From sequence record NC_079181.1: a stretch of DNA of 52,615 nt. One strand, given 5' to 3'. A program made the position numbers and the translations under genes. The DNA is from Escherichia phage vB_EcoP_Bp7. The notes below the pieces were generated by a model, which was not told the origin of the DNA, made no database searches, and worked only from the letters and a program-made list of their open reading frames with translations. The stretch's first letter is position 1, and each line of letters opens with the position of its first letter. Below, piece after piece: positions 1 through 41,042 of the stretch.

Positions 1-1941
1 ATGACTACTATCACCACTCAAACTATCAAATCCGTTGTTCCTGCTATCACTGCTCTGGTATATCGTGCCAAAGAGAAACAGAACTATATGCAGCCTCAGA
101 CTTGTGCTATTGCTGCCTTAGCCATCTTCAAGATGATGACGTCTTTCACTCGTGATGACGTTGTTCCTGCCATCGCGATGGTTGAGCTGGCTTCTGCTTC
201 TATTGCTGATGCCAACCGTTATAACAACGATTTGAAAGCAATGCACTATGTTGACCCAGCTATCAACCTGATTGGTTTGGCTAAGCACTTTGGCTTCATC
301 ACCATGAACGAAGACAAGTCATTCCAACAAACTGATACATGGGTTGAACTGGTTACAACCAAAGACACAGCAGTGCCATTCACTGAGCGTGTTACATCTG
401 AATCTCGTCGCAAGCCTTTCGTTAAAGGTGGCAAAGTTAAGCCATCCAAAACTCTGAAAGCTGCAATCGAATTCCTGCAAGATACTGAGTACCATGTGGA
501 GACTGAGATGGTTCGCATCATCCAGTCCATGCTTGAACAACGTACCTACGGTGGTTTGCAGATGCCAGAAGCAATCCAGACTGAACTCCATGTTTGGAAC
601 AATGCTGTAGCAATGATGAATCAGGACACACTGTATTCTGATTACTTTGCTGATAACCGTGGTCGTCTGTATCACGTAGCATGTGCTGGTCCTAACCCAC
701 AATCATCTGACTTTGCTCGTTGCTTGTATTCTCACAATGTTGAGAACATCGTTAAGAAGTTTAACGAAGATGGTTCTACTACCATTGCATACAACATGTT
801 CATGGCAGAGCTGGAAGATATTTCTGGTGGTGAATGGTGCAGTGCTAAGCGTTTAACTTATGTTGCTCAGAATCCAGCTGGTTCACTTGCTCGCATGATG
901 AACATGCCTAAAGCTGAACGTCCTTCTAAGCCATTCACTTATGTTCGTCTGGCTCTGGATTGGTTCAAGTTTGAGACTACAGGTGAGTGCGATTCTCGTG
1001 TAGGCTTTGGCTTAGATGCTAAATGTTCTGGTACTCAATATCTGGCATTCATTGCTGGTAACATGGAAATGGCTCGTGCAACAGGTCTGGTTGATTCTGA
1101 GACTAAAGCATCTGACCCATACCAGTTGAGTCTTCGTGAACTGTTGAAGCTGCTGGACAAGTCTTCAATGAAGCCATCTCCTGAAATCATGGATGAATTC
1201 TTGAATCCGAAAGCTGGTCGTAAGTTTATCAAAACTCCGTACATGGCTATCCAATACGGTGGTGGTAAAGCTGCACTAACTGGTTCATCTGACTTCATCA
1301 GCTACATGACAGAAGCACTCCAGATTCCTATGGAGAAAGCAGAAGCATTTGCTGAACTGTGTGTGGAAGCAATCCATAACGCATTGGGTGCTAAGATTAA
1401 CATGTTCATTGAGAAAGCTGCTGAAGCTGCATACAACCGTTGTGTTGAACTTGGTAAAGAGTACATCACATATCGTCACACTGATGGTCAGGTTGTAATG
1501 AAGCCTTGCTTCCCATCTCGTGAAATCTGTGAGGCATTCAGCATTCGTGTTGATAGTCAAACTCGTGTTATCTTTGGTCAGATTCAGGAGAATAAGCCTT
1601 GGACCATTCGTGAATCCAATCCAACTAAAGAAGAATTCAAGCGTACTTTCGTTGTTAACTACATTCAGGGCATTGATGCACTTGTTGCTCGTACTGTTGC
1701 AGTTAAAGCTAAAGAAGCTGGTCTTCGTGGCTTCACTTCAATCCATGATTGTTTCCGTTGCTGTTTGGCAGACGCTCCACGTATGATGGAAGTTATTCGT
1801 GCAGCATATGTTGAAATCTTCGTAACCAACAATCAGTTCGAGAATCTGTCTAAGCAACTCGGTGGCATTCAGATGTATCATGAGAACATCGTAACTGAAG
1901 AGCTTCTGATGAGCGAACACGCTTACTACTTCTGTCAATAA
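1..1941 (+). CDS. T7-like single-subunit DNA-dependent RNA polymerase, compact (646 aa)
   Basis: Palm motifs in translation: motif A GFGLDAKCSGTQYLAF, motif B RKFIKTPYMAIQYGGGK, motif C SIHDCF. ATG at base 1; a GGAG lies 8 nt upstream across the window junction (52604-52607) if the sequence is circularly contiguous. Confidence 0.9.
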   Translation: MTTITTQTIKSVVPAITALVYRAKEKQNYMQPQTCAIAALAIFKMMTSFTRDDVVPAIAMVELASASIADANRYNNDLKAMHYVDPAINLIGLAKHFGFITMNEDKSFQQTDTWVELVTTKDTAVPFTERVTSESRRKPFVKGGKVKPSKTLKAAIEFLQDTEYHVETEMVRIIQSMLEQRTYGGLQMPEAIQTELHVWNNAVAMMNQDTLYSDYFADNRGRLYHVACAGPNPQSSDFARCLYSHNVENIVKKFNEDGSTTIAYNMFMAELEDISGGEWCSAKRLTYVAQNPAGSLARMMNMPKAERPSKPFTYVRLALDWFKFETTGECDSRVGFGLDAKCSGTQYLAFIAGNMEMARATGLVDSETKASDPYQLSLRELLKLLDKSSMKPSPEIMDEFLNPKAGRKFIKTPYMAIQYGGGKAALTGSSDFISYMTEALQIPMEKAEAFAELCVEAIHNALGAKINMFIEKAAEAAYNRCVELGKEYITYRHTDGQVVMKPCFPSREICEAFSIRVDSQTRVIFGQIQENKPWTIRESNPTKEEFKRTFVVNYIQGIDALVARTVAVKAKEAGLRGFTSIHDCFRCCLADAPRMMEVIRAAYVEIFVTNNQFENLSKQLGGIQMYHENIVTEELLMSEHAYYFCQ

Positions 1942-1990
1942 TCAGTAACACTAATTGGGTCAAGGATGACCACAAACTTGGAGACTTATA

Positions 1991-2191
1991 ATGAATACCA
2001 TGCAAATCAATCAAATCGAAAACTGTTTCAATCCTCATCACACCTGTGACATGAGCAACTTATCTCGTCCTACAGTGGAGGAGACTAAAGACTTCTTAGA
2101 ATTGTTAGCAGAATATAAGCAAGAATCGCATGTATTATTGCACGCATATTTGCACAATTCTGGATACTTTGATACAGAGATACCGTTCTGA
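1991..2191 (+). CDS. hypothetical protein (66 aa)
   Basis: ORF with GGAG 7 nt upstream; its initiation region cttggagacttataATG nearly repeats the one at the RNAP junction. Confidence 0.5.
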   Translation: MNTMQINQIENCFNPHHTCDMSNLSRPTVEETKDFLELLAEYKQESHVLLHAYLHNSGYFDTEIPF

Positions 2192-2196
2192 TACTT

Positions 2197-2222
2197 GGGA
2201 GCTTCGGCTCCCTTTTCTTATT
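2197..2222 (+). terminator. intrinsic terminator after the RNAP operon
   Basis: GGGAGC-TTCG-GCTCCC hairpin followed by TTTTCTTATTT. Confidence 0.8.
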
Positions 2223-2266
2223 TCAATTAATTTAAGAGCTGTCTTCAATATCGTCACACAACTCTT

Positions 2267-2285
2267 ACATTAGTTGGATGTGAAG
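2267..2285 (+). promoter_or_regulatory. phage promoter-like motif P1 (acattagttggatgtgaag)
   Basis: Member of a conserved motif family seen at 10 sites; no sigma70 -10/-35 pattern. Confidence 0.55.
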
Positions 2286-2299
2286 TAAAAGAATACGGA

Positions 2300-3135
2300 G
2301 AAATATTCCGCATGTCATGTTGAATCATTCTAGAAACATTCAGCATGTCAGCTTTGAGTTACAGTGTTGTAATGATGTGGCAATCATTGAACTCCCTAGG
2401 TAGGCCACCTACAGTTCCAGCAACCATGACTTAGAGTAGGAATATCTATCCGAAACTTGTACTTCACCTATAGCATGTTCAATTGCGACAATATTGCTCC
2501 ATCTCCTATTATAAAGGCCCACCCACAAGCCGGGAGATAACTTTGGTAATATTGGAACTTTTGGACATGCTTCTTTCTTTCTACAAGAATTCGAAAGAAG
2601 AGAAGAAGTCGGACAAAGCATCTCGTTTGCACGCAGAAGCCGCCCCGATTTTGAGCAACAAATATTGTGACAATTGCGTCGCAGTATGGCATGTAAATAT
2701 TGCTACAAATTGGCATGTTGGAATGTGGCAGAATTGTTAGAGGACTAATCACCTCGAAGATACAATCGTCTACCAATCTGGCATGTTAATTTTGTAACAG
2801 TATTTGTGCCAATTTCGCATGTAGTATTTAACCCAATATTCTTGCAACCCGCATGAATACTGGCTTCCAGCCAAGCGAAGGCTTTATCATCGCATGTAAT
2901 ATTGTGACAATATTGGGATAAAACCCTTTATTTAAATCATTTAGTTTATTAATTAAATGGTCGGTTTTCTGTACATAGGTATTCAGCTGTTTGTGCCAAA
3001 TACAAACAAGTTGGCTGCTTCTACAGAACTCCAGTGCTATAAATGTTCGTGCCAATCTGCTGCAATTTATCTCATTTGGCGGGGTAATATTGTATTAGAT
3101 TGGCATGTCATTCTTTCGATTAGTTGCATGTGAAT
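2300..3135. repeat. non-coding array of degenerate repeats (core GCATGT about 12 times, palindrome CAATATTG about 5 times) with an AT-rich stretch
   Basis: Read directly, e.g. tggcatgtaaat, tggcatgttgg, tggcatgttaat, tcgcatgtagta, tcgcatgtaat, tggcatgtcatt, ttgcatgtgaat; AT-rich 2925-2990; no credible ORF. Confidence 0.6.
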
Positions 3136-3316
3136 AAGACCAAATCTCTGTAAATTCTGTGACAGATTTTAGAGAGATTATGTCTCCAAGCTAATCATTG
3201 CAGTTCTTCGGCACTTGCTGTGTCACATACTCCCTACAACTTTAAGGTGGATTGAGGTAAGACAAGACCTCCACAATCGTTCTGTAGGGAGTTTTCTTTT
3301 AACTTAGGAGAATAAA

Positions 3317-3535
3317 ATGACTCGTTTTAAAGATTTGGAAGATGGTGCAATCTTCTTTACGCGTGGTGGAGAACATCTGCAAAAAGTTCTGGAAGATGAC
3401 GTTAATGTAAATGCCGTATTCGTTGGTGATTCTAACATTGGTGTTTTATTAAATGACAATGAGAGAACTTTTACCGAGGAGGAGTTTAAAGAAATCTCAG
3501 CCTCTGATTTAGTTCAAGAGCCAATTGAAGTTTAA
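3317..3535 (+). CDS. hypothetical protein (72 aa)
   Basis: ORF with AGGAG 6 nt upstream. Confidence 0.55.
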   Translation: MTRFKDLEDGAIFFTRGGEHLQKVLEDDVNVNAVFVGDSNIGVLLNDNERTFTEEEFKEISASDLVQEPIEV

Positions 3536-3550
3536 TACATAGGAGTAAAC

Positions 3551-3739
3551 ATGGACTTCATCGTCTACTTTAAGTTAAATGGTGTGGAGCAAAGATTGTA
3601 TTTCAATTCTTTACTTCGTTTGCAACAGTGGGCGGAGAAGTTTATTGGTTACGACTTTGAATACATCAACGCATGTACACCTGACGAACATGAGGAAATC
3701 GTGTTCAGTGGATTAAATCAGATTCTGGAGGCTAAGTGA
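3551..3739 (+). CDS. hypothetical protein (62 aa)
   Basis: ORF with AGGAG 5 nt upstream. Confidence 0.55.
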   Translation: MDFIVYFKLNGVEQRLYFNSLLRLQQWAEKFIGYDFEYINACTPDEHEEIVFSGLNQILEAK

Positions 3740-3930
3740 AGAGCAAATATGAAAATATATTGCTAAAGTCTTCAGTGGGAGTGTTGTATGTGTGCACTCC
3801 CGAATACAAATTTGCAGCAATGTACCTCACAAAGTTGAGAGGTTGGATTCCAGTAAATGTGAAAGTGAGTGTGCTGAAAGAATGTGCACTCATTGGTCGA
3901 AATCTGCAATCAAAGGTGGGTTGGGTATGA
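3736..3930 (+). CDS. hypothetical protein (64 aa, GTG start)
   Basis: GTG overlapping the upstream stop (GTGA), GGAGG 5 nt upstream. Confidence 0.4.
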   Translation: MKSKYENILLKSSVGVLYVCTPEYKFAAMYLTKLRGWIPVNVKVSVLKECALIGRNLQSKVGWV

Positions 3931-4193
3931 GTCAGTTTAAGTTAAAAGCAGATTTAATCGAATTGGCCTCTTATGAAGAAAAGATTGAATTCATCCAAGA
4001 GCGTTTGGTTGTCAACTACGGTGGTTGGATTGATGTTTCAACAAATGAGTTAGTGGTTCGTATCAAGGAGGAGTTTGGTATTGAAATCACTAACAAACAG
4101 TTTTATGAAGATGTTCTCACAGATAAAGTAATCCGAGGCATCACAAACAATTTCATGTCCAGCTTTATGGAAGGTGGGCCACACTTAAAATGA
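3927..4193 (+). CDS. hypothetical protein (88 aa)
   Basis: Internal ATG of the 3792..4193 ORF with AGGTGG upstream; ATGA overlap with the preceding gene. Confidence 0.5.
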   Translation: MSQFKLKADLIELASYEEKIEFIQERLVVNYGGWIDVSTNELVVRIKEEFGIEITNKQFYEDVLTDKVIRGITNNFMSSFMEGGPHLK

Positions 4194-4354
4194 AGAAATT
4201 AAAATATATGACCAAAACGGTCACGTATATGGCTATGTATGGTGCTTCAAAGCGTAAGGCTAAGAAATTGGCAAGAGCTGCAAATCCTCGTATGCCAGCA
4301 CGTAAGGTGGCCAAAATCGTTAATCTGGTATTTGGCAATTGGAGTGTTAAATGA
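4190..4354 (+). CDS. small basic protein (54 aa)
   Basis: Hand-translated; ATGA overlap with the upstream gene; K/R-rich. Below the ORF track cutoff. Confidence 0.4.
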   Translation: MKKLKYMTKTVTYMAMYGASKRKAKKLARAANPRMPARKVAKIVNLVFGNWSVK

Positions 4355-4518
4355 GCAAGATTCTAGAGTCAGCAATGTACAGCCTACATTTCGGATTTAG
4401 CTACGCTACAGTAAAGCGTCAGGAGAAACGATTTTCCCGACTACCTGCGCGAACTGTTGCCAAAGAAGTTAAGAAAGCGGGCGAAATCCTAAAGTTCTGT
4501 AGAAACGTGTTGTATTAA
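4351..4518 (+). CDS. hypothetical protein (55 aa)
   Basis: Hand-translated; GGAG 6 nt upstream; ATGA overlap. Confidence 0.4.
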   Translation: MSKILESAMYSLHFGFSYATVKRQEKRFSRLPARTVAKEVKKAGEILKFCRNVLY

Positions 4519-4531
4519 TTCCGGAGGCAAA

Positions 4532-4705
4532 ATGAACGACCAGCAATTCAACACATTCATGCAGCAGATTAATCATCAAGAACTGATGGATGCCATCAAA
4601 GGCAAGAAGCCTGTAGAACGTCGATATCGCAAAATTGATAATTATATGCCAACAATCATTGCATGTGTTGGATTCCTGATTGCTCTCTACTTCCTGGTGA
4701 AATAA
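4532..4705 (+). CDS. small tail-anchored membrane protein (57 aa)
   Basis: Hand-translated; GGAGG upstream; C-terminal hydrophobic segment TIIACVGFLIALYFLVK. Confidence 0.45.
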   Translation: MNDQQFNTFMQQINHQELMDAIKGKKPVERRYRKIDNYMPTIIACVGFLIALYFLVK

Positions 4706-4785
4706 TGTCTATTATCAAGAAATTAGTATTCTGTGCTTTAATGTTCCCTTTGGTGCTGCTCGTTGTGGGCAGCTTCATAATCTAA
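4705..4785 (+). CDS. 26-aa hydrophobic peptide (speculative)
   Basis: Hand-translated MSIIKKLVFCALMFPLVLLVVGSFII; TAATG overlap with the upstream gene. Confidence 0.25.
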   Translation: MSIIKKLVFCALMFPLVLLVVGSFII

Positions 4786-4799
4786 ACTAAGGTAATTAA

Positions 4800-5108
4800 A
4801 TGGCTTCTTTACTCGAATTCTCAAATATTGCAAATGTTGCTAAGAATTCAATTCCTGCAAATACTGATGTAATTGCATATATGCGTGTTGATGTGAGTCT
4901 GTTGGCTTTTGTAATGGACCACATCAATCTTGTTGAAGAGCAGTTGTCTCAGGCTAATGAAACAATTGACACTCTTCGTAAACTTCGTGAGGCAGAACAA
5001 AACGCCTACGATGAATTGATGGAGCAGAAGAACAAGCTCCAAGAACAACTGGCAGACGCACTTCAACAAATTGAAGACATGAAGCCACCAGCAGAATCAA
5101 CCAAATAA
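4800..5108 (+). CDS. hypothetical coiled-coil protein (102 aa)
   Basis: ORF with AAGG-type SD; heptad-like C-terminal half. Confidence 0.55.
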   Translation: MASLLEFSNIANVAKNSIPANTDVIAYMRVDVSLLAFVMDHINLVEEQLSQANETIDTLRKLREAEQNAYDELMEQKNKLQEQLADALQQIEDMKPPAESTK

Positions 5109-5126
5109 TCAAACTTAGGAGTTATT

Positions 5127-5387
5127 ATGGCTACTAGAACAGGCATGATGATTGTCCCAAGCCGTAATAACTCTTTAAGCGGCTTTACACCATATAAAAT
5201 CTACGAAGTGATTTCTGGCACTGGTGAAGCAAACCTGTCAGAAGTTGCTTTGAAGTTGGGCCGTATGGTCCACTCCGAAATCTCCTGTAACGTAGTTGAT
5301 GATGAAGGTAAAATCCGTTTTGTAACAATGGATTTCTTTCGTGAATTTAACCTCAAATCTGAATTAGGAGTTCTGTACCATGAATGA
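5127..5387 (+). CDS. hypothetical protein (86 aa)
   Basis: ORF with AGGAG upstream. Confidence 0.55.
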   Translation: MATRTGMMIVPSRNNSLSGFTPYKIYEVISGTGEANLSEVALKLGRMVHSEISCNVVDDEGKIRFVTMDFFREFNLKSELGVLYHE

Positions 5388-5562
5388 GGATGATGTTGTC
5401 TGCCCAAAGTGTGGCAGCAATAACATAGACCATGTAGCATACGAAGCAGTGGGAATGTACGGTCCCGTAGTTCTGGACAGCGCATTCTGTGTAGACTGTG
5501 GTTTAAACATTTATCGTGGAAAACTTATAGACAATAGTGGGAATATCCCGCCAAAAGGATAA
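5380..5562 (+). CDS. zinc-ribbon protein (60 aa)
   Basis: CPKCGS...CVDCG pair of CxxC motifs. Confidence 0.5.
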   Translation: MNEDDVVCPKCGSNNIDHVAYEAVGMYGPVVLDSAFCVDCGLNIYRGKLIDNSGNIPPKG

Positions 5563-5564
5563 TC

Positions 5565-5792
5565 ATGAAATTTAAATGTGTTGCTTCAACCAAAGATTAT
5601 GTTCCAGTTGGCTTCATCGTTGAGGGTGAAGCTATCTCACCTTTGGAATTTAAAGTGACTAAATCTGCTGAGAATGTTTCTCCAGCATTTCGTAAAGGTG
5701 CTGTAGTTCCTATGAATGGTGCATTCTGGACATGGCAGCGTGACCATGAAGCAGAATTTGCAGATATTTGTGAACAAGGTTTATTGCAATGA
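5565..5792 (+). CDS. hypothetical protein, paralog A (75 aa)
   Basis: Starts MKFKCVASTKDY; shares N-terminal KFKCV.ST and a W.W motif with the next gene. Confidence 0.5.
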   Translation: MKFKCVASTKDYVPVGFIVEGEAISPLEFKVTKSAENVSPAFRKGAVVPMNGAFWTWQRDHEAEFADICEQGLLQ

Positions 5793-5995
5793 CAAAGTTT
5801 AAATGTGTGAAATCAACCTCTTCTTCCAAACATTCTCCGAAAGTTGGAGATGTGATTGAAGGAGAACTTGTCGGCAATTTAATAGTTATTTCGGGCATTG
5901 GCGACCGAACGTACGCAAACGGAAGGCCATACTGGAGAATTGGTGAAAAAGTTCCGTTAAAAGGCAGTATCTGGTCCTGGGAAGAAGTTAAATAA
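5789..5995 (+). CDS. hypothetical protein, paralog B (68 aa)
   Basis: Starts MTKFKCVKSTSS; tandem paralog of 5565..5792. Confidence 0.5.
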   Translation: MTKFKCVKSTSSSKHSPKVGDVIEGELVGNLIVISGIGDRTYANGRPYWRIGEKVPLKGSIWSWEEVK

Positions 5996-6058
5996 TTTCC
6001 TCAACCACTTTTGTAATGAGAGTGGTTGCTGAATATTATTAATTAACTTGGAGCATTT

Positions 6059-6349
6059 ATGAAACAACGTACTCGTTTACAACGTGACCCAGCCACAGGT
6101 CGCTTGTTGCCAGCATACTTAAAAGTTGGTGACTTAGTTTACACTCGTGACTTTGCTTTTGACATTTGCCCAAGCAAAGCATATGAAGTTCTTGCCACCA
6201 GCTTGTCTGGTCCTAAAGTGATATTCGGTGCACTTGAGCCAATTCAATTAACCGGAACTCAGTTTGTCATTAAAGACGAATCTGGTTGCAATCGTATCTT
6301 CAATCTCGAAGGTGGATTATCCAAATGGGAGAAGGTGAAGCGTGGGTAA
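6059..6349 (+). CDS. hypothetical protein (96 aa)
   Basis: ORF with GGAG upstream; preceded by an 8-bp stem hairpin at 6002-6028. Confidence 0.5.
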   Translation: MKQRTRLQRDPATGRLLPAYLKVGDLVYTRDFAFDICPSKAYEVLATSLSGPKVIFGALEPIQLTGTQFVIKDESGCNRIFNLEGGLSKWEKVKRG

Positions 6350-6575
6350 GAATTATATCGAAATGTTTAAGCAACTGTCCATCAATGGGCAGGAGTTCTT
6401 GCTAAACGATGCAAGGCAAGATATTGAGCTGTCTGATAAATACAGCTCATCATATCAGAGAACTATTGTAAAATGGACGTTCTCTTACATATCTTACAAT
6501 CTTCCAGGAGAAACGCTTGTAATTAGTGGTTCTGGCGACTCCGTATTATCCGCTTTGGAGAAACTAAAGCAATGA
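6342..6575 (+). CDS. hypothetical protein (77 aa)
   Basis: ORF overlapping the upstream gene end. Confidence 0.45.
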   Translation: MGKNYIEMFKQLSINGQEFLLNDARQDIELSDKYSSSYQRTIVKWTFSYISYNLPGETLVISGSGDSVLSALEKLKQ

Positions 6576-6859
6576 ACAAGAATTCAATCTTACGTTATGT
6601 TGGTAAAACAAATTACAGCTTTACCTACGGTAAGAAGTACAAAATCGTCGCAGGTCGTGGTGACGGGGTTCCTCGCAACAACGGTACACTCGGTGCGTAT
6701 ATTCAATCTCCTTTGGGTTTTGTCGTTAATGATGATAACCGCAATTTATGTTATCGTACATTCTCCGATAATTGGGAACTTGTAAAAGATTCTGGTGAAG
6801 TTAGTTGGTATAAACCTGAATCAAACATGGACCCAATTCCAATTTCAAAGGTGATGTAA
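6572..6859 (+). CDS. hypothetical protein (95 aa)
   Basis: ORF with ATGA overlap to the previous gene. Confidence 0.5.
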   Translation: MNKNSILRYVGKTNYSFTYGKKYKIVAGRGDGVPRNNGTLGAYIQSPLGFVVNDDNRNLCYRTFSDNWELVKDSGEVSWYKPESNMDPIPISKVM

Positions 6860-7059
6860 TGCTTGTAAATACACACCTATTCAGTCACAACAGTTTTGCA
6901 ACAGAGAACATTGATGCAGGTTGGACACTTTGGTTTGTGGAAGCTCGTGGTAATCCGTATTGGGATAATGTTCAATCTATGCGCTTTCCAGTGAAGCCAA
7001 CCAAAAAGCAAATACGCAAATTGCGTAGAAAGTTCATAAACGATTGCAAGTCCTGTTAA
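6859..7059 (+). CDS. hypothetical protein (66 aa)
   Basis: ORF overlapping the stop of the previous gene. Confidence 0.45.
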   Translation: MLVNTHLFSHNSFATENIDAGWTLWFVEARGNPYWDNVQSMRFPVKPTKKQIRKLRRKFINDCKSC

Positions 7060-7101
7060 ATTAACAATGGGCATCTCTTGCAGGTGTCCATGATTAATCT
7101 A

Positions 7102-7120
7102 ACATTAGTTGATTGTGAAT
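7102..7120 (+). promoter_or_regulatory. phage promoter-like motif P2 (acattagttgattgtgaat)
   Basis: Part of a ~65-bp intergenic module (7055-7120) duplicated at 7446-7509. Confidence 0.55.
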
Positions 7121-7138
7121 AATAATTGGAGAATAAAG

Positions 7139-7450
7139 ATGGCAAAAGTTCTGAACTATTCGAAAGTTAAAGGTGTTCACAACAACGCAGTGTATATCGG
7201 TCGAGATATGAAGGGAATTGCTGGAAACAAGAAATTCCACAATCCTTTTAAAATGTTTAAAGAAAGCCAGAGAGACTACGTGTGCGAAGAGTATCGCAAA
7301 TATTTGTGGAAACAAATTAAATCTGGTGAAGTAACAATAGATGATTTGCTGGCATTAGATGGCAAAGATTTAGTTTGTTGGTGTGCCCCAGCACGCTGTC
7401 ATGGCGATACAATAATGGCCGCAATAGAGTGGGCGAAGAAGCAACGTTAA
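7139..7450 (+). CDS. conserved phage protein, possibly DUF4326-like (103 aa)
   Basis: ATG at 7139 with GGAG 7 nt upstream; C-terminal LVCWCAPARCHGD motif. Family assignment is from memory, not a search. Confidence 0.5.
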   Translation: MAKVLNYSKVKGVHNNAVYIGRDMKGIAGNKKFHNPFKMFKESQRDYVCEEYRKYLWKQIKSGEVTIDDLLALDGKDLVCWCAPARCHGDTIMAAIEWAKKQR

Positions 7451-7490
7451 ATTAACAAGGAGCATTCATTGAGTGTTCCTGATTAATCTA

Positions 7491-7509
7491 ACATTAGTTG
7501 GATTTGAAG
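7491..7509 (+). promoter_or_regulatory. phage promoter-like motif P3 (acattagttggatttgaag)
   Basis: Conserved motif about 75 bp upstream of the 7583 gene. Confidence 0.55.
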
Positions 7510-7582
7510 AGGGACAAAGCTATTCCGTGGTTAGCAATGTCACTGAAACTTAAACTGTAATTAACTTAAGAGAATCTTAATC

Positions 7583-7960
7583 ATGGCACAATATTCAGAT
7601 GTAAACACTGGCATCATCGGTCCTAACGGCTTCAAGAAAGACCCAAAACATCCCGACATTCGTGGGCGTATTAACGTTGACGGAATCTGGTATTGGGTAT
7701 CTGGTTGGAACAAGCAAGCAAATGGTAATGAGTTTACCTCACTTGCATTAACCATCATGACTCAGGAACAGGTTGATGAAATGATGCGTAAGCGTGAGGA
7801 GAAAGCTAAAGCCAAAGCTCAACCTCAAGCTGCCGCTCAACAGCAACAGCAACGTCAACAGCCGACTCAGCAGCAACAAACTCAGGCACAACAGCCTCAG
7901 GGAAATTCTGCATACAACCCAAATGAGCCGAAAGACTTCGACGACGACATTCCGTTCTAA
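7583..7960 (+). CDS. small protein with Q-rich linker and SSB-type acidic C-terminal tail (125 aa)
   Basis: C-terminus ...DFDDDIPF matches the E. coli SSB tail; ~70-aa N-terminal domain then a QQQQ-rich linker. Confidence 0.6.
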   Translation: MAQYSDVNTGIIGPNGFKKDPKHPDIRGRINVDGIWYWVSGWNKQANGNEFTSLALTIMTQEQVDEMMRKREEKAKAKAQPQAAAQQQQQRQQPTQQQQTQAQQPQGNSAYNPNEPKDFDDDIPF

Positions 7961-8057
7961 TGGAGATGCCCTATGAAAATTTTATGTTTTATAGGGCTAC
8001 ATAATTGGGAAATTTCACACGAAAACGATTATGTAACCATTTGGGTGTGCAAACACT

Positions 8058-8987
8058 GTGCAGCAATGCGTGAGGAATATCATGGACAATAAGGTTATCG
8101 AAATACCTGCCAACTTGGTTAAAACTGGCGACATTGTATTTCATGATGGTAGAGGGTATCCGATTGTACACATCAACAGACTTAGTGGTGTAGTTCAGCT
8201 ACAATACTCTGGCGGATTCTTTAACTTTGAGTTGGGCCGTATAGTCAGAGTATTGGAAAAACGTCCCACTACAGAATCTTTTACAAAGCCTACCACAACC
8301 CGTGCAGTATTGGCGCATGAAGTACGACCTGGAAACATTTTATCTTACGGAATCAGATTCTTTGAGATAAAGGAAGTTAAAGACCTTGGAGAAATACCTG
8401 AAAATGTGGTTCGATTAACCCATGTAACAGGATACTTTGACTTTTCACCCAACCGCATAGTCCACATTGTTAATACGCCACCAGCACAGGAAACTCCTAC
8501 GGTGAAGTTCGATACTCAAATAAAGCCAGTGTTCCTTCCATATGAGGAAGCGGTGAAACCATTCTCAGATGAAGAGGATGTTCTTGGAAAAGATTTGGAA
8601 GTTGGTGATATTATTTGGGTCAATAATACTTGGGCCACTATAACAAATATGTATAAACATCCAAATTCACCATTTAATAAAGTGAATGTGGACTATGATG
8701 GCGTTAAAGGTTTACAAGTGCGCCTCACATTAACTGGAACATTTTCAAGAAAGGTAAGGGCAGTTATGGAAACATTATATATTCAAAATGCAATCGAAGC
8801 ACAACGTATTCTTCTGCAAAAGCTCGAGCAAATGCTGGAATTAGCGCAGCTCCTACCAACAAAAGATGGCAAGATTGCAATCAGCAACTGCAACATTCGC
8901 GTGGACAAGGCATCAATCACTAAAGCCGCACGCGATGAAATGAAAGTTGCTGCAAGCAAATCCGCAGAACTTATCAAGAAGCTGTAA
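8058..8987 (+). CDS. hypothetical protein with three internal repeats and a C-terminal coiled coil (309 aa)
   Basis: Repeated modules around TGDIVFHDGRGYPIV / PGNILSYGIRFF / VGDIIWVNNTW; alternative ATG at 8082. Confidence 0.55.
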   Translation: MQQCVRNIMDNKVIEIPANLVKTGDIVFHDGRGYPIVHINRLSGVVQLQYSGGFFNFELGRIVRVLEKRPTTESFTKPTTTRAVLAHEVRPGNILSYGIRFFEIKEVKDLGEIPENVVRLTHVTGYFDFSPNRIVHIVNTPPAQETPTVKFDTQIKPVFLPYEEAVKPFSDEEDVLGKDLEVGDIIWVNNTWATITNMYKHPNSPFNKVNVDYDGVKGLQVRLTLTGTFSRKVRAVMETLYIQNAIEAQRILLQKLEQMLELAQLLPTKDGKIAISNCNIRVDKASITKAARDEMKVAASKSAELIKKL

Positions 8988-9042
8988 TTAACAGAGGTCA
9001 TTCCACTTCGAGTGGCCTCGATTAATTATTACTGGAGTATTT

Positions 9043-9393
9043 ATGAAAACTTTATATATTGCACTGACAATACTGTTCGGAGTATTCGCATTTAAATCGG
9101 AAGCGTCTGTTCGCAACTTCCAGTGTGGCGGATACAAAATGTCCGTTGAAACAATTACAATGAGCCAGCCACTCATTGCAACAATTTCCTTGCACGAAGG
9201 TACTTGGATTGAGATTCCAGACAATGGGAATCCTAACCCAATGTCCACAGTGTTCTATAACACACAGAGCAGTAAGCTGGCTTTAGTTGGTGTTGACGCT
9301 GAGGAACGTTTAGTGCTACAGATTTATCGTGACATTGACTTCTTTCATGCCAAATTTCCACTTTTATCAACATATTGTAAGGAAGTTAAATGA
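9043..9393 (+). CDS. secreted protein (116 aa)
   Basis: N-terminal signal peptide MKTLYIALTILFGVFAFKSEA. Confidence 0.55.
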   Translation: MKTLYIALTILFGVFAFKSEASVRNFQCGGYKMSVETITMSQPLIATISLHEGTWIEIPDNGNPNPMSTVFYNTQSSKLALVGVDAEERLVLQIYRDIDFFHAKFPLLSTYCKEVK

Positions 9394-9623
9394 CGTCATC
9401 CGAATTTACCATTGATGGAGTACCGTACTTACTTGAATCCAGTTGCGAATATCGTCACTGGTCAGTAATTCGCGACCGAGTAGTCAAATTCTTGGAGCGA
9501 GTAGGGAAAGATGCGGCTATTCTGACTACAGCCACAGTAGAAGGAACAACCGAAATCAATCGGGAGCTTGTATCTTTTAAATTAACCATCAACCCAACAG
9601 GAAATCCATTCCGTGAAAGTTGA
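9390..9623 (+). CDS. hypothetical protein (77 aa)
   Basis: ORF with ATGA overlap. Confidence 0.45.
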   Translation: MTSSEFTIDGVPYLLESSCEYRHWSVIRDRVVKFLERVGKDAAILTTATVEGTTEINRELVSFKLTINPTGNPFRES

Positions 9624-9882
9624 AGAACTGGCTGACCATCTTGAGGCAGCAAAACGAGAGTCTGCAATTCAGTCAGGACGTATTGCAAAACTGAAAGGGC
9701 AAGACTCAACGTCCGAAGAAATCCAGCTGTTCACAGACAATATCTGGTTTTCAATGAATCGTGCACAGTTTATCGAGATTCAGGAAGAACGCCTTACTGA
9801 ACTGGAAAAGCGTGTAGAAACACTTGAGAGCTTGCTTGTAACACTGCAAGAAACTCTGGACCAGGAACTGAAAAATGTCTAA
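9613..9882 (+). CDS. hypothetical coiled-coil protein (89 aa, non-ATG start)
   Basis: ORF from the track; helical heptad-like sequence. Confidence 0.4.
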   Translation: MKVEELADHLEAAKRESAIQSGRIAKLKGQDSTSEEIQLFTDNIWFSMNRAQFIEIQEERLTELEKRVETLESLLVTLQETLDQELKNV

Positions 9883-10273
9883 CGTTAAGCTGGGCCAACG
9901 CTCCCTTGACCGACTCAAAGGTGTAAATCCTTCATTGGTGGCAGTTTTCAAGCGTGCATGTGAAACAATGCCGTTTGATGTAACTGTTCTTGAAGGTTTG
10001 CGTACTTATGAGCGTCAACAAGAGCTTTTAAAGCAAGGTGCAACCAAAGTTTCAGTTAGCCGACACATGTCAGGCAATGCTTTAGACATTGCACCATATC
10101 CGATTGACTGGAATGACCTTGAACGATTCCAAATTGTAGCTGAACACATGTTCAAAGCTGCAAAAGAGCTTGGAATTACCATTCGTTGGGGTGGAACATG
10201 GGAACGAACCTTCACTAAGCCAGTGAAATGGGCTAAGTTCCTGGATGCACCACACTTCGAACTTCCAGCATAA
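9875..10273 (+). CDS. peptidase M15-type peptidoglycan hydrolase (132 aa)
   Basis: Zinc-binding motifs SRHMSGNALD (H-x6-D) and DAPHFE, as in M15_3 / T5-type L-Ala-D-Glu endopeptidases. Confidence 0.75.
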   Translation: MSNVKLGQRSLDRLKGVNPSLVAVFKRACETMPFDVTVLEGLRTYERQQELLKQGATKVSVSRHMSGNALDIAPYPIDWNDLERFQIVAEHMFKAAKELGITIRWGGTWERTFTKPVKWAKFLDAPHFELPA

Positions 10274-10281
10274 CTTCATCA

Positions 10282-10572
10282 ATGGAGCATCCGATGAATT
10301 ACGAAGATATTCCAAGAGAGTTGAATGCACTAGAGTCAAGAACCATCCGTGCAGAGAATATTCTCCACCAGCACCTATCAATTAACGTGGGTGATGAAAA
10401 GAAGATGCAGTACACTATGGAACTTGACGATGTAGTCTACACTGTCAGTTACAACGAGAAGGCTGCTATCCTCAGTGCACTTATCAAAGGTGGGAATGAG
10501 CGAATCAATCAACTTAAGATTCTGGACAAAGAATTGAGAGGTACTTGGGAGAAACTAAATGCAAAACGATAA
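10282..10572 (+). CDS. hypothetical protein (96 aa)
   Basis: ORF from the track. Confidence 0.5.
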   Translation: MEHPMNYEDIPRELNALESRTIRAENILHQHLSINVGDEKKMQYTMELDDVVYTVSYNEKAAILSALIKGGNERINQLKILDKELRGTWEKLNAKR

Positions 10573-11107
10573 CATTACTCAAGCAGTAGAACAACTTAAG
10601 TCCTGGCGTAGAGATGAAACCTTATTGGTTCGTTTCTACACAGGCGAAACTAATTCTGAATTTGTAGATGCGTGGATTGATGGCCTGTCTTGGCGTCACT
10701 ATGATTTCGACATGCGGGAGTATTTGCATGAAGAATATGGCATTGAATATCCAGAAACCGGTACATACGACGTAATTGAATCAAATGAAGAGGATGTTAC
10801 CGAAGTTTGCTTTGCCAATGGCCTATTCAGTATTCGTAAATATGATAAGTTCAATGAGCTGCTTGTTGACACCGATTTGGATGTAATTCTTGCAGCATTC
10901 CGCAGCGGTGAGATTGATATTTTCACTGTGGATGATTTGAACGATATGTTCATCACACGTTGCGACTCAATTACAGAGTATTTGAAGCAAAGTGAGGCAC
11001 TGGATATTCCAGACCGCCTTGCACCATATATTGATTGGGATGCAATCACCAGAGATTATGGAAGTGACTACATTTTCTCTGAGGGAATACTGTTCTTAAA
11101 TGCGTGA
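10559..11107 (+). CDS. highly acidic protein (182 aa)
   Basis: Very D/E-rich throughout (e.g. EEDVTEV, DTDLDV, DIFTVDDLNDMF). Confidence 0.55.
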   Translation: MQNDNITQAVEQLKSWRRDETLLVRFYTGETNSEFVDAWIDGLSWRHYDFDMREYLHEEYGIEYPETGTYDVIESNEEDVTEVCFANGLFSIRKYDKFNELLVDTDLDVILAAFRSGEIDIFTVDDLNDMFITRCDSITEYLKQSEALDIPDRLAPYIDWDAITRDYGSDYIFSEGILFLNA

Positions 11108-11342
11108 TTTAAATATTGCTGAACTTGAGGCTGGATTGATTGTTCACCACCAGCCTCGAAACACTTTCTATCGTATTCTTGGGCCTACAAAGATTAAAAC
11201 TCACTGCGGAAGTTGGGTGGATGGGTTTGCTTACCAAGAAGTGAAGAAGTACGGGGACCATACTTTCTTGAGTATTGATTCTTCTACTATCTACACACGA
11301 CCGAAAGAGCTGTTTGATTCAGACTGGAAGGTTCTGGGATAG
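11100..11342 (+). CDS. hypothetical protein (80 aa)
   Basis: ORF from the track. Confidence 0.45.
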   Translation: MRDLNIAELEAGLIVHHQPRNTFYRILGPTKIKTHCGSWVDGFAYQEVKKYGDHTFLSIDSSTIYTRPKELFDSDWKVLG

Positions 11343-11410
11343 TTCCAAGCTGTTCCGTCGAAGTGCCAAGCGGGTTTTGTGCTCGCATTGGCCTTCGGCT
11401 TTAGTCTGAA

Positions 11411-11429
11411 ACATTAGTGGGATTTGATT
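11411..11429 (+). promoter_or_regulatory. phage promoter-like motif P4 (acattagtgggatttgatt)
   Basis: Conserved motif, preceded by tctgaa as in P5 and P6. Confidence 0.5.
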
Positions 11430-11551
11430 CGGACCACTTAGGGAAGAAAGGCATTATACACTTATCGCCAAATGGGTGTCAAGCACTTTCTTCATTTATT
11501 TTAACTTATTCTTATTATTCTTTTTGTTTGGAATATTGGAATAATTCTGAA

Positions 11552-11570
11552 ACATTAGTTGGAATTGAAG
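11552..11570 (+). promoter_or_regulatory. phage promoter-like motif P5 (acattagttggaattgaag)
   Basis: Conserved motif; followed at 11590-11660 by a structured element. Confidence 0.55.
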
Positions 11571-11589
11571 AGACAACATCAGATAAGAG

Positions 11590-11660
11590 CTTTGTAACTA
11601 GGTAGTCCGTCTGGTACCAGGGCGTGTGAGAACGTTCGATTCGTTCTACAAAGTTCTTTT
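11590..11660 (+). ncRNA. promoter-proximal structured RNA candidate with a tRNA T-arm-like hairpin
   Basis: CTTTGTA (11590-11596) pairs with TACAAAG (11647-11653); inner GAACG-TTCGATT-CGTTC hairpin and palindrome CTGGTACCAG; followed by TTCTTTTCG. Confidence 0.35.
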
Positions 11661-12204
11661 CGATGGAATGTTTCCATCAAATACATTTATCTTTTAACAT
11701 AGGCCAAAGGGCCGGAATACTTCTTCGCAGAAAGCTGTTCACTTGTTATAGCGATGTATTGGGATGAATTGGTACTAAATAAGCAAGCTGTTAGGGCTGA
11801 ATAATTAGAGGGTTATGCCTCATGCTTATGTTAGTCATTCGAAAATAGGTTTGTGCCACAAGCTGCTGGTGCTCTGAGGAAGTCGGACAAACAGGGCTTA
11901 GAGTGGCATAATCCGCACAAAACCGCGCCACCAGCTATGCCAAAGCGGGTGGATTGGGTGAATGTATTGGGAAGGGTTGCAAAGCCTCTGTGACACGCCT
12001 GAGCCGCAAGGCGACGACACTCATGTGATTAGCGTATCGCACCCTAACGGGAGTAACCCTTCGCCAATGCAGTTATCCAGAATTGACACAAACGGTAGGC
12101 AGTGGCCCGATTTTCGGCCTTCCTGCGCTACCCTGTGGCCTGTTCCTGGGCCAAAAGATGAGAAGAGAAGTCACAAACACTGAATCGAAAATTGGAGAGT
12201 TCCT

Positions 12205-12525
12205 ATGATTCGCAAGCATTCTGCTAAAGTTTTGACGTTAAGAAACGTACTAATGTTTCCGTCGAGTGGGGAAGGAGAGGAAGAAACAATCCACTTCGTT
12301 CTCGTTGGCGGGCGTTGGTACTATAACGGCACCAATTCTTTCCACGTAAGTTTGTCGGAGAAAGATGGATTCTGGAAGCACACCTTTAAGGAGTTGCTTG
12401 AAAGCAGTGCCAACTACACCCCTGCCGAAGTTAAGAAATATTTCTACTGCGGCCCAAACAAGTCCATGCAAATCGCAACTCGCAATTGGACAACAAACCA
12501 ACCGATTTACGGAGTTCCATTTTGA
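12205..12525 (+). CDS. hypothetical protein (106 aa)
   Basis: ORF with GGAGAG 6 nt upstream. Confidence 0.5.
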   Translation: MIRKHSAKVLTLRNVLMFPSSGEGEEETIHFVLVGGRWYYNGTNSFHVSLSEKDGFWKHTFKELLESSANYTPAEVKKYFYCGPNKSMQIATRNWTTNQPIYGVPF

Positions 12526-12812
12526 ACTTACAGGACAAATCTAAAGAAGAGTTGATTGAGATTATCCAGAAAGAGCACGAACTCGCTGGCATCACAATTA
12601 ACTTTGAACTCCAGGCAATGCAAGCTGTTGCTTTGGGGCACGGTCTGATGGCTACACTCATTCATGCCAAGAATGTGTTAGGCGTTGACAACGAAAAATA
12701 CCAAATTCTGGAGAAAGCTGCGCAAGAGCGGATTTCGCAGTGCTTGGTGACATTAGTTGATTTGGGAATCGACGCAGAAACTGCGAACAAACGTATCCTA
12801 CAAGGCCACTAA
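12486..12812 (+). CDS. hypothetical protein (start uncertain)
   Basis: ORF from the track; overlaps the upstream gene, so the true start may be internal. Confidence 0.4.
   Translation: MDNKPTDLRSSILNLQDKSKEELIEIIQKEHELAGITINFELQAMQAVALGHGLMATLIHAKNVLGVDNEKYQILEKAAQERISQCLVTLVDLGIDAETANKRILQGH
12750..12768 (+). promoter_or_regulatory. phage promoter-like motif P9 (acattagttgatttgggaa)
   Basis: Conserved motif inside the 3' end of the preceding ORF, upstream of the 12814 gene. Confidence 0.45.
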
Positions 12813-12813
12813 A

Positions 12814-13488
12814 ATGTCTTATCATGATGATGACAAAGAGATTGCACTATCAACGTGTAAGCAATGGCTCAATGATAATGATGCCGTCTATCTTGCCAAG
12901 GAAGATGTTATCATTATGTGGGTCCATTTTAATCCAGAATCGAAGCGCGGTGAGTGGCAACGCTACAAGATGAAAGAGGCTTGTCGCATAATTAAAGCCA
13001 CACGCGCTGGCTTCTCTGCTATGAAGTATATTAAGCCAGAGATGCTTATGCTTGCTGCACAGGAAGAAGAACGTGCGTATAAGCAAGCTGTTAAATCTCG
13101 TTCAACTGTTCCTCCAGAGTTCTTTAATTTGGAGCGCGCTGGACACTTCAACAATTTAGAAATGTTGACACTGTGCCTGTTGCAAGAATTAGTTGGAAGA
13201 GGACAAAACATTGAAGCTGTTTGTCTTGGAGAACTCATGAAAGAGTTGTTCTCGGCAAAGGGCTTTGCTGTGCCAAACCGAACTTTACGCTGGAAATTGT
13301 TGCGAGCAGTCGCGCAAGAAGCTGGTGTAGTTGTTCGTGACAGAACAAACCGACTCACTGTAACTGGAGTTGGGCGTTTTGTAGCAATCCAGATTGAGGG
13401 TTATGACGAATCAATCATCACTGAACTCACTGTCGCTGAGACAAAGGATTTAGTAAATAAAACACTAGAACGATTCAATAGATATTGA
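12814..13488 (+). CDS. hypothetical protein (224 aa)
   Basis: ATG at 12814 in frame with the 12757 track ORF, directly after the upstream stop. Confidence 0.55.
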   Translation: MSYHDDDKEIALSTCKQWLNDNDAVYLAKEDVIIMWVHFNPESKRGEWQRYKMKEACRIIKATRAGFSAMKYIKPEMLMLAAQEEERAYKQAVKSRSTVPPEFFNLERAGHFNNLEMLTLCLLQELVGRGQNIEAVCLGELMKELFSAKGFAVPNRTLRWKLLRAVAQEAGVVVRDRTNRLTVTGVGRFVAIQIEGYDESIITELTVAETKDLVNKTLERFNRY

Positions 13489-13517
13489 GTCGTTTGACGA
13501 ATCAGAGCAGTTCTGAA

Positions 13518-13536
13518 ACATTAGTTGGATGTGGAA
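13518..13536 (+). promoter_or_regulatory. phage promoter-like motif P6 (acattagttggatgtggaa)
   Basis: Conserved motif about 75 bp upstream of the 13612 gene. Confidence 0.55.
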
Positions 13537-13611
13537 AGAGAAAGGCTCTTTAATTTTATCTAAGTCACGTCACCGTGGCGTGCAAAACTATTCAATATAA
13601 GGTATATACAA

Positions 13612-13950
13612 ATGGCTAAGATTGTAACCGTAACTCAGTACGAAGCTAACGATGGTTCCCTGTTCCTGACCGAAGCAGAGTGTAATGCACATGACTTCAA
13701 ACTGGAAAACGGTGCTAAAATTGAGAAAGCTGCCGAAGCGTACCTGAACACCGTTGGCGCTATCGACCGTTCTCGCTCCATGCAGAAGAACACCATCGAG
13801 CAGTTCCTGGCATTCTACCTGCCGTGGGTTGAAGCTGGTGAGCCGGAAGTTGAGCGTACTAAGTTCGATACTCCGAAAGAAGCTAAAGTTGCTGACGCAA
13901 GTGTTGCCGAAGCTGCCGAAGCTGCTGTTGAAGAAGCTCCGGTATTCTAA
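13612..13950 (+). CDS. hypothetical protein with acidic C-terminal tail ending in Phe (112 aa)
   Basis: Strong SD (TAAGGT); E. coli-like high-expression codons; C-terminus AEAAEAAVEEAPVF. Confidence 0.65.
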   Translation: MAKIVTVTQYEANDGSLFLTEAECNAHDFKLENGAKIEKAAEAYLNTVGAIDRSRSMQKNTIEQFLAFYLPWVEAGEPEVERTKFDTPKEAKVADASVAEAAEAAVEEAPVF

Positions 13951-15061: not shown

Positions 15062-15093
15062 CCCACTTTAATAACCGCAATACTGGAGTCCTT

Positions 15094-15234: not shown

Positions 15235-15242
15235 GGTGATTT

Positions 15243-21261: not shown

Positions 21262-21533
21262 TGAAAACTGTATATTCTATTTTCGATATGCAGGAATTAG
21301 AGCACCATATGTTTGCTACTGATTCCGAAGTTCCGGCAAAGGACGCTGTAATGGCGTTCCTTGAAAAGATTAAGGACGAAGTGTTCGCTTCTTCTGACCC
21401 ACAGTCTCAAGCATTCAACGATGAGACATTCAAAAACATCCAAACTTTAATCTCGGCAACTACTTCAATTGAAGAGCTGTCCGAAGCATTAGTTGGATAT
21501 GACTTCCGACTTGCTGTGTTGCAGGTCGACTAA
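21261..21533 (+). CDS. hypothetical protein (90 aa)
   Basis: ORF with ATGA overlap to the polymerase stop. Confidence 0.5.
   Translation: MKTVYSIFDMQELEHHMFATDSEVPAKDAVMAFLEKIKDEVFASSDPQSQAFNDETFKNIQTLISATTSIEELSEALVGYDFRLAVLQVD
21486..21504 (+). promoter_or_regulatory. phage promoter-like motif P10 (gcattagttggatatgact)
   Basis: Conserved motif inside the 3' end of the upstream ORF, 60 bp before the 21564 gene. Confidence 0.45.
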
Positions 21534-26349: not shown

Positions 26350-26535
26350 ATGCGCACAATACAATGTCCTAACTGCCACTATGAAATTGCAGAAGATGAT
26401 TTCATAACGCAGCAATGTCCTATCTGTGATTCATATATGCCACTAAACCGCCTGTATTTAAAGGCCGATTCTGGTTTAGGCAGCATCATTCGCATCAATC
26501 CCGTGCAAACTCAGCCATTAGTGGATTGTGATTAA
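26350..26535 (+). CDS. zinc-ribbon protein (61 aa)
   Basis: CPNCHY ... CPICD pair of CxxC motifs. Confidence 0.45.
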   Translation: MRTIQCPNCHYEIAEDDFITQQCPICDSYMPLNRLYLKADSGLGSIIRINPVQTQPLVDCD

Positions 26536-40991: not shown

Positions 40992-40997
40992 GGAGTT

Positions 40998-41022
40998 GGG
41001 GAGAAATCCCCAGCTTTCCTTT
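40998..41022 (+). terminator. terminator-like hairpin after the tape-measure gene
   Basis: GGGGA-GAAA-TCCCC followed by AGCTTTCCTTTT. Confidence 0.55.
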
Positions 41023-41023
41023 T

Positions 41024-41042
41024 ACATTAGTTGAATATGTAT
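41024..41042 (+). promoter_or_regulatory. phage promoter-like motif P7 (acattagttgaatatgtat)
   Basis: Conserved motif 23 bp upstream of the 41065 gene. Confidence 0.5.

Follow-up and report, generated by a model that had tools for sequence, protein, structure and literature searches.

A recurrent 18-base motif in Escherichia phage vB_EcoP_Bp7 as a probable promoter of the phage's own T7-type RNA polymerase

The genome of Escherichia phage vB_EcoP_Bp7 (sequence record NC_079181.1), whose 52,615 nucleotides we analyzed in full and refer to here as the window, contains a short sequence that recurs along its length, which raises the question of what this sequence is read by. The initial annotation had described it as a promoter candidate of about 19 bp for the RNA polymerase (RNAP) of the phage, present in at least ten copies. 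A repeated 18-base motif, (a)CATTAGTTGGAtnTGAa, is indeed real in the window and, as judged from sequence, very probably serves as promoter for the 646-aa T7-type RNAP that the phage itself encodes. Strand, position, evolutionary footprint, linkage to the RNAP gene, and information profile all favor this interpretation, which is carried by the location of 10/10 strong copies on the + strand, the intergenic position of most of them, a footprint that extends across genera, and the co-occurrence of the motif with the RNAP gene.

Motif copies and their placement

The consensus of the motif is a-CATTAGTTG-G/A-A-t-n-T-G-A-a. When the whole window was searched with the pattern ACATTAGTTGGANNTGAA and up to three mismatches were allowed, 11 matches were found, 10 of them on the + strand; shuffled sequences gave an expectation of 0.65 and a largest count of 4, and 0 of 100 shuffles reached 11. 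The initial annotation had proposed a position weight matrix (PWM) search of the whole genome as a check, and such a search, with a PWM built from ten sites, separated ten strong sites scoring above 23 bits (2267, 3117, 7102, 7491, 11411, 11552, 13518, 21486, 41024, and 52532) from three weaker sites on the + strand (12750, 26515, and 13186), with a single marginal match on the minus strand. The + strand is the gene-coding strand, on which every gene of the window also lies. By itself, the core CATTAGTTG has eight occurrences on the + strand and a single one on the - strand, compared to 0.27 expected per strand. Two counts that were blind to the motif arrived at it as well: ACATTAGTTG is the top non-homopolymer 10-mer of the window, and an all-against-all comparison of 16-mers ranked the motif family first. 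As in promoters of single-subunit phage RNAPs, we are dealing with a long, asymmetric, multi-copy sequence, here a block of 18-21 nt in ten strong and three weak copies.

To place the copies relative to genes, we used a deliberately generous map of open reading frames (ORFs), which leaves 10.3% of the window non-coding, and 8/10 strong copies are intergenic on this map (P = 4.7e-7). The next maximally extended ORF begins 7-92 nt away (410 nt for the tandem copy at 11552), and the likely ATG is found at 37-410 nt, except for the copy at 2267, which faces about 1 kb of non-coding DNA. For most copies, start codons with ribosome-binding sites lie 37-200 nt from the motif start, and if transcripts began at the G in motif position 16, their leaders would measure 22-1035 nt, with room for a ribosome-binding site in all of them. 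The copies are co-oriented with the genes or gene blocks that they precede, and the placement claimed at the outset, after terminators and shortly upstream of gene starts, was borne out, with copies behind terminator hairpins and 22-200 nt before genes.

We see practically no likelihood of the motif being a functionless repeat that arose by chance or from coding sequence. The weak copies at 13186 and 12750 do lie in coding sequence, where protein constraint could explain their conservation; for the ten strong copies, however, a chance reading is effectively refuted by the shuffles, the mostly intergenic location, the strand specificity, and the cross-genus footprint. A coding-derived repeat was rejected on the same grounds.

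Intergenic, strand-specific sites that often stand beside hairpins would also be expected if the motif were a signal at which the phage RNAP pauses or terminates, like T7 class II, or a site of RNA processing, a reading that we regard as very unlikely. The motif lies downstream of hairpin-plus-T-run terminators and not within them, two copies stand in tandem (11411 and 11552), and another lies just upstream of the RNAP gene, a place at which stopping transcription would work against the phage. The class II signal of T7 is, moreover, only about 7-8 nt long. The conserved block spans 18 nt and lacks conserved internal pairing, because positions 13-14 vary, and Rfam gave no match in the window.

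Conservation of the motif alongside the polymerase

Over its first 20 kb, the window is 90-96% identical to Escherichia phages vB_EcoM_JL1, TH53, ST32, and phiEcoM-GJ1 (GJ1 below). It represents essentially the whole genome, rotated to begin at the RNAP start codon, of a phiEcoM-GJ1-like myovirus (Chaseviridae, Cleopatravirinae, Carltongylesvirus), and Carltongylesvirus members are unusual for myoviruses in that they have a gene for a T7-like single-subunit RNA polymerase. We compared the window to the complete genomes of GJ1, Erwinia phage Faunus, Escherichia phage 4HA13, and Proteus phage Myduc, whose RNAPs are 67-93% identical to that of the window. Each of the four has CATTAGTTG(G/A), with hardly a copy off the coding strand, in orthologous places: upstream of the RNAP gene, just after it, upstream of the single-stranded DNA (ssDNA)-binding protein gene, after the DNA polymerase gene, and upstream of the baseplate-hub gene. 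Alignment of six orthologous intergenic regions, among them those of the window copies at 2267, 13518, 21486, and 41024, shows CATTAGTTG as an invariant island between diverged flanks. The genera in this footprint are Carltongylesvirus, Faunusvirus, Sabourvirus, and Myducvirus, and the core is invariant across these four, with RNAPs 66-99% identical to the window RNAP.

Such fixed positions bear on whether the motif could be a non-transcriptional DNA signal for oriented recombination (Chi-like), replication, or packaging. Its strand bias would suit that role, as would the location of the copies at 52532 and 2267 inside the predicted terminal repeat, beside a repeat-rich non-coding region. Chi-like and primase signals, however, are short and not confined to intergenic DNA, unlike most of the strong copies here; the copies keep their gene-proximal orthologous positions across genera; and the repeat-rich region has a separate and different repeat family. 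We therefore hold a DNA signal to be exceedingly improbable.

Beyond the four genera, the motif tracks the polymerase in evolution, evidence that is correlative. An island in the chromosome of Hafnia alvei encodes an RNAP 53% identical to that of the window and holds nine + strand motif copies, while no copy was found in about 8 kb of chromosome flanking the island. Phage contig L011, with an RNAP 55% identical, carries an altered version of the motif, GCGTTAGTTGGG, and the motif was not found in genomes with RNAPs 34-41% identical. A de novo search of Aeromonas phage BUCT696 (Nefertitivirinae) and locus L013 (41% RNAP) found no convincing equivalent motif, so that co-variation of promoter and specificity loop is seen only as presence or absence. 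An exact-pattern scan of IMG/VR with CATTAGTTGGANNTGA (14 specified bases) yielded, among the matches listed, mostly single chance ones.

The presumed reader of the motif is the product of a 646-aa ORF at 1..1941, whose presence in the window we confirmed. This RNAP is 99.8% identical to the ST32 RNAP and matches the Pfam family RNA_pol (PF00940, E 2.9e-18). While phmmer gave no match for it against the PDB, profile and fold searches did: an AlphaFold2 model (pLDDT 91.6) retrieved T7 RNAP (top hits, E 3e-18) and the mitochondrial RNAPs as its best PDB matches in Foldseek, hhalign aligned residues 221-623 to T7 residues 404-853 with a probability of 96.9%, and a profile alignment paired residues 158-396 with T7 residues 317-592. 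Across 49 aligned homologues, none of the T7 catalytic motifs varies (D339/SGTQ, R407-K411-Y419, and H582-D583). Going by these alignments and the predicted model, the protein is a compact RNAP of the T7 type, its catalytic motifs are intact, and it has a homologue of the specificity loop; the window thereby encodes a cognate single-subunit enzyme in the same genome as the motif. The loop homologue lies at about residues 505-540 (FSIRVDSQTRVIFGQ), and hhalign shows 13 residues inserted in it compared to T7. It is near-invariant at RNAP identities of 60% or more, as found in the genomes sharing CATTAGTTG, and variable below 50%. Conservation of the loop in parallel with the motif is what would be expected of a promoter-reading element, and this correlative pattern is consistent with the loop having that role.

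With 39 sites pooled from five non-redundant genomes, the information content of the motif is limited to positions -5 to 18 and is at background directly downstream. The profile bears on a further alternative, in which the motif would be bound by an activator or repressor that the phage encodes and that acts together with the RNA polymerase of the host, as at the T4 MotA box. Such a box would also be expected upstream of genes and co-oriented with them, TTGGAT within the motif matches the -35 hexamer at 4/6 positions, and the copy at 7102 overlaps a weak 9/12 sigma70-like match. Nevertheless, no -10-like element occurs at any fixed distance (at most 0.36 bit at positions 19-45 of the pooled sites), and since information is at background past position 18, a fixed-distance -10 element and a MotA-type model are ruled out. 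The window shows no enrichment of sigma70-like sites, the motif accompanies the RNAP gene into a chromosomal island, and its core is invariant exactly where the specificity loop of the RNAP is invariant. As such, we give very little credence to an activator or repressor box.

Three promoter types were tried and rejected. For a sigma70 promoter, there is no -35/-10 pair with 16-18 nt spacing at the copies, the overlap at 7102 being the only one of its kind, and positions 1-20000 hold 25 sigma70-like matches, fewer than the 39.9 +/- 7.1 in shuffles; the absence of sigma70 structure stated in the initial annotation was upheld. A MotA-type middle promoter failed on the low information at positions 19-45. 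A hairpin promoter of the N4 virion RNAP type was discarded as the sole complementarity within the motif (ACAT/ATGT) uses the variable positions 13-14.

The Hafnia alvei island (L012; NJFP02000002.1, 2778075-2800021) also encodes an integrase, a holin, a cell-wall hydrolase, ArdA, and TerC/TerB. Its RNAP is of the Chaseviridae type, with the RNAP gene next to the integrase gene, and the nine CATTAGTTG copies lie on the coding strand. Should the island be an integrated relative or a remnant of this phage family, that would come as a surprise, since the family is described as strictly lytic. The Chaseviridae-like contig L011 (Logan SRR22859383, 53.6 kb) has a gene with weak Phage_integrase matches at 18330-19304, and RNAP homologues are also found on contigs of 137 kb-6.3 Mb in Lelliottia and Pseudomonas assemblies. 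The genome of BUCT696 (L009+L010) has an intergenic repeat of its own, tAGGCTCTtGCGAGCCAAAAGAA, at 123, 1407, 4073, 16178, 52673, and 52861, all on the coding strand. This repeat holds a 5-bp hairpin with compensatory changes (GGCTC/GAGCC, GGAGC/GCTCC, and GGCCC/GGGCC) and may be a different regulatory element of the Nefertitivirinae, which lack the CATTAGTTG motif.

Proposed mode of action and known promoters

By analogy with T7, we can outline how the promoter would be bound and melted, where the exact transcription start (+1) would lie, and what temporal program would follow. Host RNA polymerase would first transcribe the RNAP gene from upstream sigma70-type promoters. The phage RNAP would then bind the invariant CATTAGTTG duplex via its specificity-loop hairpin (residues ~505-540), melt the variable A-T-n-T segment, and start RNA at or next to the invariant G in motif position 16 (e.g., window position 2282). 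The early, DNA-metabolism, and late gene blocks would in this way be transcribed rightward as polycistronic RNAs, with positive feedback from the copy that precedes the RNAP gene. Position 16 is G in 39/39 sites, with A-T-n-T before it and A/G, then A/T, after it.

Several points weigh against the motif being the promoter of the phage RNAP in the form outlined. The approximately 26 kb of late genes have one strong copy, at 41024, and the weak copy at 26515, and would thus require very long transcripts or additional unrecognized promoters. The copy at 2267 and the pair at 11411/11552 aim at long non-coding stretches and not at genes. The region of the RNAP before its T7-aligned part is about 160 residues shorter than that of T7 (~158 vs 317), and selection of the sites by PWM inflates the logo statistics within positions 1-18. 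If the register is instead set by the upstream half of SP6 and K11 promoters, +1 would move to position 19, where 6/10 window copies have T; with T unlikely for this enzyme class, a start at position 19 is the less likely one. Lastly, we found no 5'-end or in vitro transcription data in the searchable literature on Carltongylesvirus, Chaseviridae, 4HA13, ST32, and PY100.

A bolder version would hold that the compact RNAP and the 18-bp motif form a minimal orthogonal pair in which promoter recognition works in another way than in T7 and, in addition, that the copies at 2267 and 11411/11552 are transcription-activated replication origins, like T7 phi1.1A/B, rather than mRNA promoters. We consider this combination unlikely. 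The RNAP may lack the contact made by the AT-rich-recognition loop of T7.

Returning to the motif as a promoter of the phage RNAP, we calibrated our pipeline on T7 (NC_001604, from which the T7 consensus was taken), and its 17 experimentally mapped promoters were recovered as the top family. The T7 control gave a 23-nt block on one strand, leaders of 11-520 nt, one promoter inside a gene, and a tandem pair directly after the RNAP gene, and the window motif behaves very similarly in the same pipeline. Like the promoters of T7, T3, SP6, and K11, it is a long asymmetric block of some 18-23 nt, with all copies on one strand, most of them intergenic and few inside genes; also shared are copies directly after the RNAP gene, tandem copies, and a cognate T7-fold polymerase with a specificity loop. 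Its AT-rich variable segment, followed by an invariant G, recalls the TATA and G of the T7 class.

The differences are equally clear. The 17 T7 sites (TAATACGACTCACTATA followed by GGGAGA) are experimentally mapped, whereas those of the window are predicted; the window motif is unrelated in sequence to the T7 consensus and its block is shorter; the polymerase has 646 aa compared to 883 aa in T7; and the window virus is a myovirus with terminal repeats of about 3 kb, unlike T7. The motif does not match the group consensus of T7, T3, SP6, and K11 (e.g., TAATACGACTCACTATAGGGAGA). To the upstream half of SP6 and K11 promoters there is partial likeness only, TTAG.TG, and with no match to T7 this places the motif in a distinct specificity group. 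The initial statement that the sequence differs from T7, T3, and SP6 promoters holds as well, with the T7 consensus as the one compared here.

The prediction itself has precedents. GenBank EF460875 (phiEcoM-GJ1) has nine features annotated in 2007 as 'putative phage promoter', with the same consensus (cgACATTAGTTGGATGTGAA) and strand and in orthologous positions, GJ1 promoters 1-9 corresponding one-to-one to window 2267, 3117, 7491, 11411, 11552, 13186, 13518, 21486, and 41024. The window copy at 7102 is an extra strong copy without a GJ1 counterpart, while the copy upstream of the RNAP gene (52532; GJ1 571) and the weak copies at 12750 and 26515 (GJ1 12356 and 26983) are present in GJ1 but not annotated there. 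A 2020 paper (PMC6989608) predicts eight promoters with a consensus for the phage RNAP in Pectobacterium phage PP101 (Suwonvirus), a member of the same family; the idea is the same, a single-subunit RNAP consensus promoter repeated along a unidirectional genome. A 2021 review (PMC8472413) states that the promoters used by the RNAP of Chaseviridae are similar in sequence and arrangement, and the 2022 ICTV profile lists Chaseviridae promoters as not yet identified. A literature search for the string ATTAGTTGG returned unrelated papers only.

Given the GenBank EF460875 and PP101 predictions, the window motif is a known prediction and not a new one, and the finding is correct. What our analysis adds to prior annotation are the extra copies, including that upstream of the RNAP gene, the cross-genus footprint, the linkage in the Hafnia island, the mapping of the specificity loop, and a candidate +1. 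If validated, the motif would be the first experimentally defined promoter for Chaseviridae, filling the gap listed in the ICTV profile, and the compact 646-aa RNAP with its promoter would make a pair orthogonal to T7, T3, and SP6 that could be useful for in vitro transcription or synthetic circuits.

Individual sites and neighboring elements

The coordinates of all copies are given in Table 1. The nine copies listed initially at 2267, 7102, 7491, 11411, 11552, 13518, 21486, 41024, and 52532 were all recovered. That at 12750 is also a real copy, but as a variant with a 1-nt deletion it does not fall within three mismatches, and the weaker copy placed near 13187 was located one base before, inside a coding region. 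The list was otherwise accurate but had overlooked 3117 and the weak copy at 26515. Extensions upstream of the motif were likewise seen as described, tctgaa/tccgaa at 11411, 11552, 13518, and 21486 and gattaatcta at 7102 and 7491. A function for the weak copy at 13186 is doubtful; its sequence is conserved in Faunus, 4HA13, and Myduc, possibly through coding constraint. The copy at 52532 has orthologues in GJ1 (571), Faunus, 4HA13, and Myduc, and the weak copy at 26515 has orthologues at GJ1 26983 and Faunus 24620. The copy at 21486 sits in the 3' end of a small ORF behind the DNA polymerase gene, that at 41024 is the only strong copy within the structural-gene region (~26.5-50 kb), and the non-coding region of about 1 kb that the copy at 2267 faces is rich in repeats.

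Table 1. Motif copies, terminator-like hairpins, and the RNAP gene in the window.
Feature	Position	Strand	Remarks
RNAP gene (646 aa, single subunit), presumed motif reader	1..1941	+	ORF
Terminator-like hairpin GGGAGCTTCGGCTCCC, then TTTTCTT	2197..2212	+	55 nt before motif 2267
Motif copy ACATTAGTTGGATGTGAA	2267..2284	+	First promoter after RNAP gene (predicted); GJ1 promoter 1 orthologue
Motif copy CGATTAGTTGCATGTGAA	3117..3134	+	24 bits; 200 nt upstream of ATG 3317; GJ1 promoter 2 orthologue
Motif copy ACATTAGTTGATTGTGAA	7102..7119	+	ATG 7139 with GGAG ribosome-binding site, 20 nt past motif
Motif copy ACATTAGTTGGATTTGAA	7491..7508	+	92 nt upstream of ssDNA-binding protein gene; GJ1 promoter 3
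Motif copy ACATTAGTGGGATTTGAT	11411..11428	+	First of tandem pair; GJ1 promoter 4
Motif copy ACATTAGTTGGAATTGAA	11552..11569	+	Second of tandem pair; then ~400 nt non-coding; GJ1 promoter 5
Weaker variant ACATTAGTTGATTTGGGA, 1-nt deletion	12750..12767	+	18.5 bits; 64 nt before ATG 12814
Weak copy GAATTAGTTGGAAGAGGA	13186..13203	+	14.3 bits; inside coding region; GJ1 promoter 6
Motif copy ACATTAGTTGGATGTGGA	13518..13535	+	94 nt upstream of ATG 13612; GJ1 promoter 7
Motif copy GCATTAGTTGGATATGAC	21486..21503	+	78 nt upstream of ATG 21564; GJ1 promoter 8
Weak copy CCATTAGTGGATTGTGAT	26515..26532	+	17.7 bits; 40 nt before likely terminase ATG 26555
Terminator-like hairpin, 11 pairs, then CCTTTT	40992..41017	+	Ends 7 nt before motif 41024
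Motif copy ACATTAGTTGAATATGTA	41024..41041	+	41 nt upstream of baseplate-hub gene; GJ1 promoter 9
Motif copy ATATTAGTTGGACGTGAA	52532..52549	+	84 nt upstream of RNAP start codon

The sole perfect CATTAGTTG core on the non-coding strand (51639-51647, minus) lies inside the last large ORF (50850-51950), whose GJ1 orthologue is annotated as the ribonucleotide reductase beta subunit. It scores only 8.9 on the PWM and is therefore probably due to chance.

Just upstream of the copy at 7491 (window 7440-7490), there is a hairpin, GGAGCA..TGTTCC, of which Faunus has changed both sides in a compensatory manner (GGTACA..TGTACC). It is probably a conserved terminator or an RNA-stability stem between gene blocks. 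Two stretches downstream of motif copies are conserved across genera as well, namely GAATACGGAGAAATATTCCGCATGTCAT after the copy at 2267 (2285-2320), which includes a small stem (CGGA..TCCG), and GGCTACGC..AATCCGTTTCAGT in the RNAP leader (52550-52600); both may be leader RNA elements.

Rfam and ARAGORN gave no matches over the window. At ~14967-15068, the window is 87% identical to a GJ1 region with an annotated tRNA-Arg ('may contain an intron'), and no tRNA was called there by ARAGORN or by Rfam at its gathering threshold.

Mapping the terminal repeat of phage Mangalitsa onto the window predicts a terminal repeat from ~52403 to ~2600. The copies at 52532 and 2267 lie inside it and would thus be duplicated at both ends of the virion DNA. 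The first RNAP transcripts probably come from host-RNAP promoters; GJ1 has an annotated sigma70 promoter, which is matched in the window by three tandem repeats of about 30 bp at ~52240-52330. In this part of the window (52209-52345), the three repeats (..GAGACTnnAATTGT..ATATTA..) come after 25 nt of poly(T) (52209-52233). These repeats are just outside the predicted start of the terminal repeat. On that prediction, of the RNAP gene copies in virion DNA, it would be just the one at the right end that has them in front of it.

Immediately past the RNAP gene, window 2192-3316 comprises about 1.1 kb without a convincing gene, bracketed by the motif copies at 2267 and 3117. It is dense in repeats of a second family (GCATGT..AATATTGTGACAATATTG), both direct and inverted, falls in the 2-kb bin where the genome reaches its lowest G+C (0.38), and receives the right boundary of the terminal repeat (~2600) in the Mangalitsa comparison. 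The layout recalls the primary replication origin of T7 after gene 1 (phi1.1A/B and an AT-rich region), and by this analogy the region may be an origin or a regulator-binding array. At the equivalent place in contig L011 (12657-12963), GTTAATATTGTGACAG occurs seven times.

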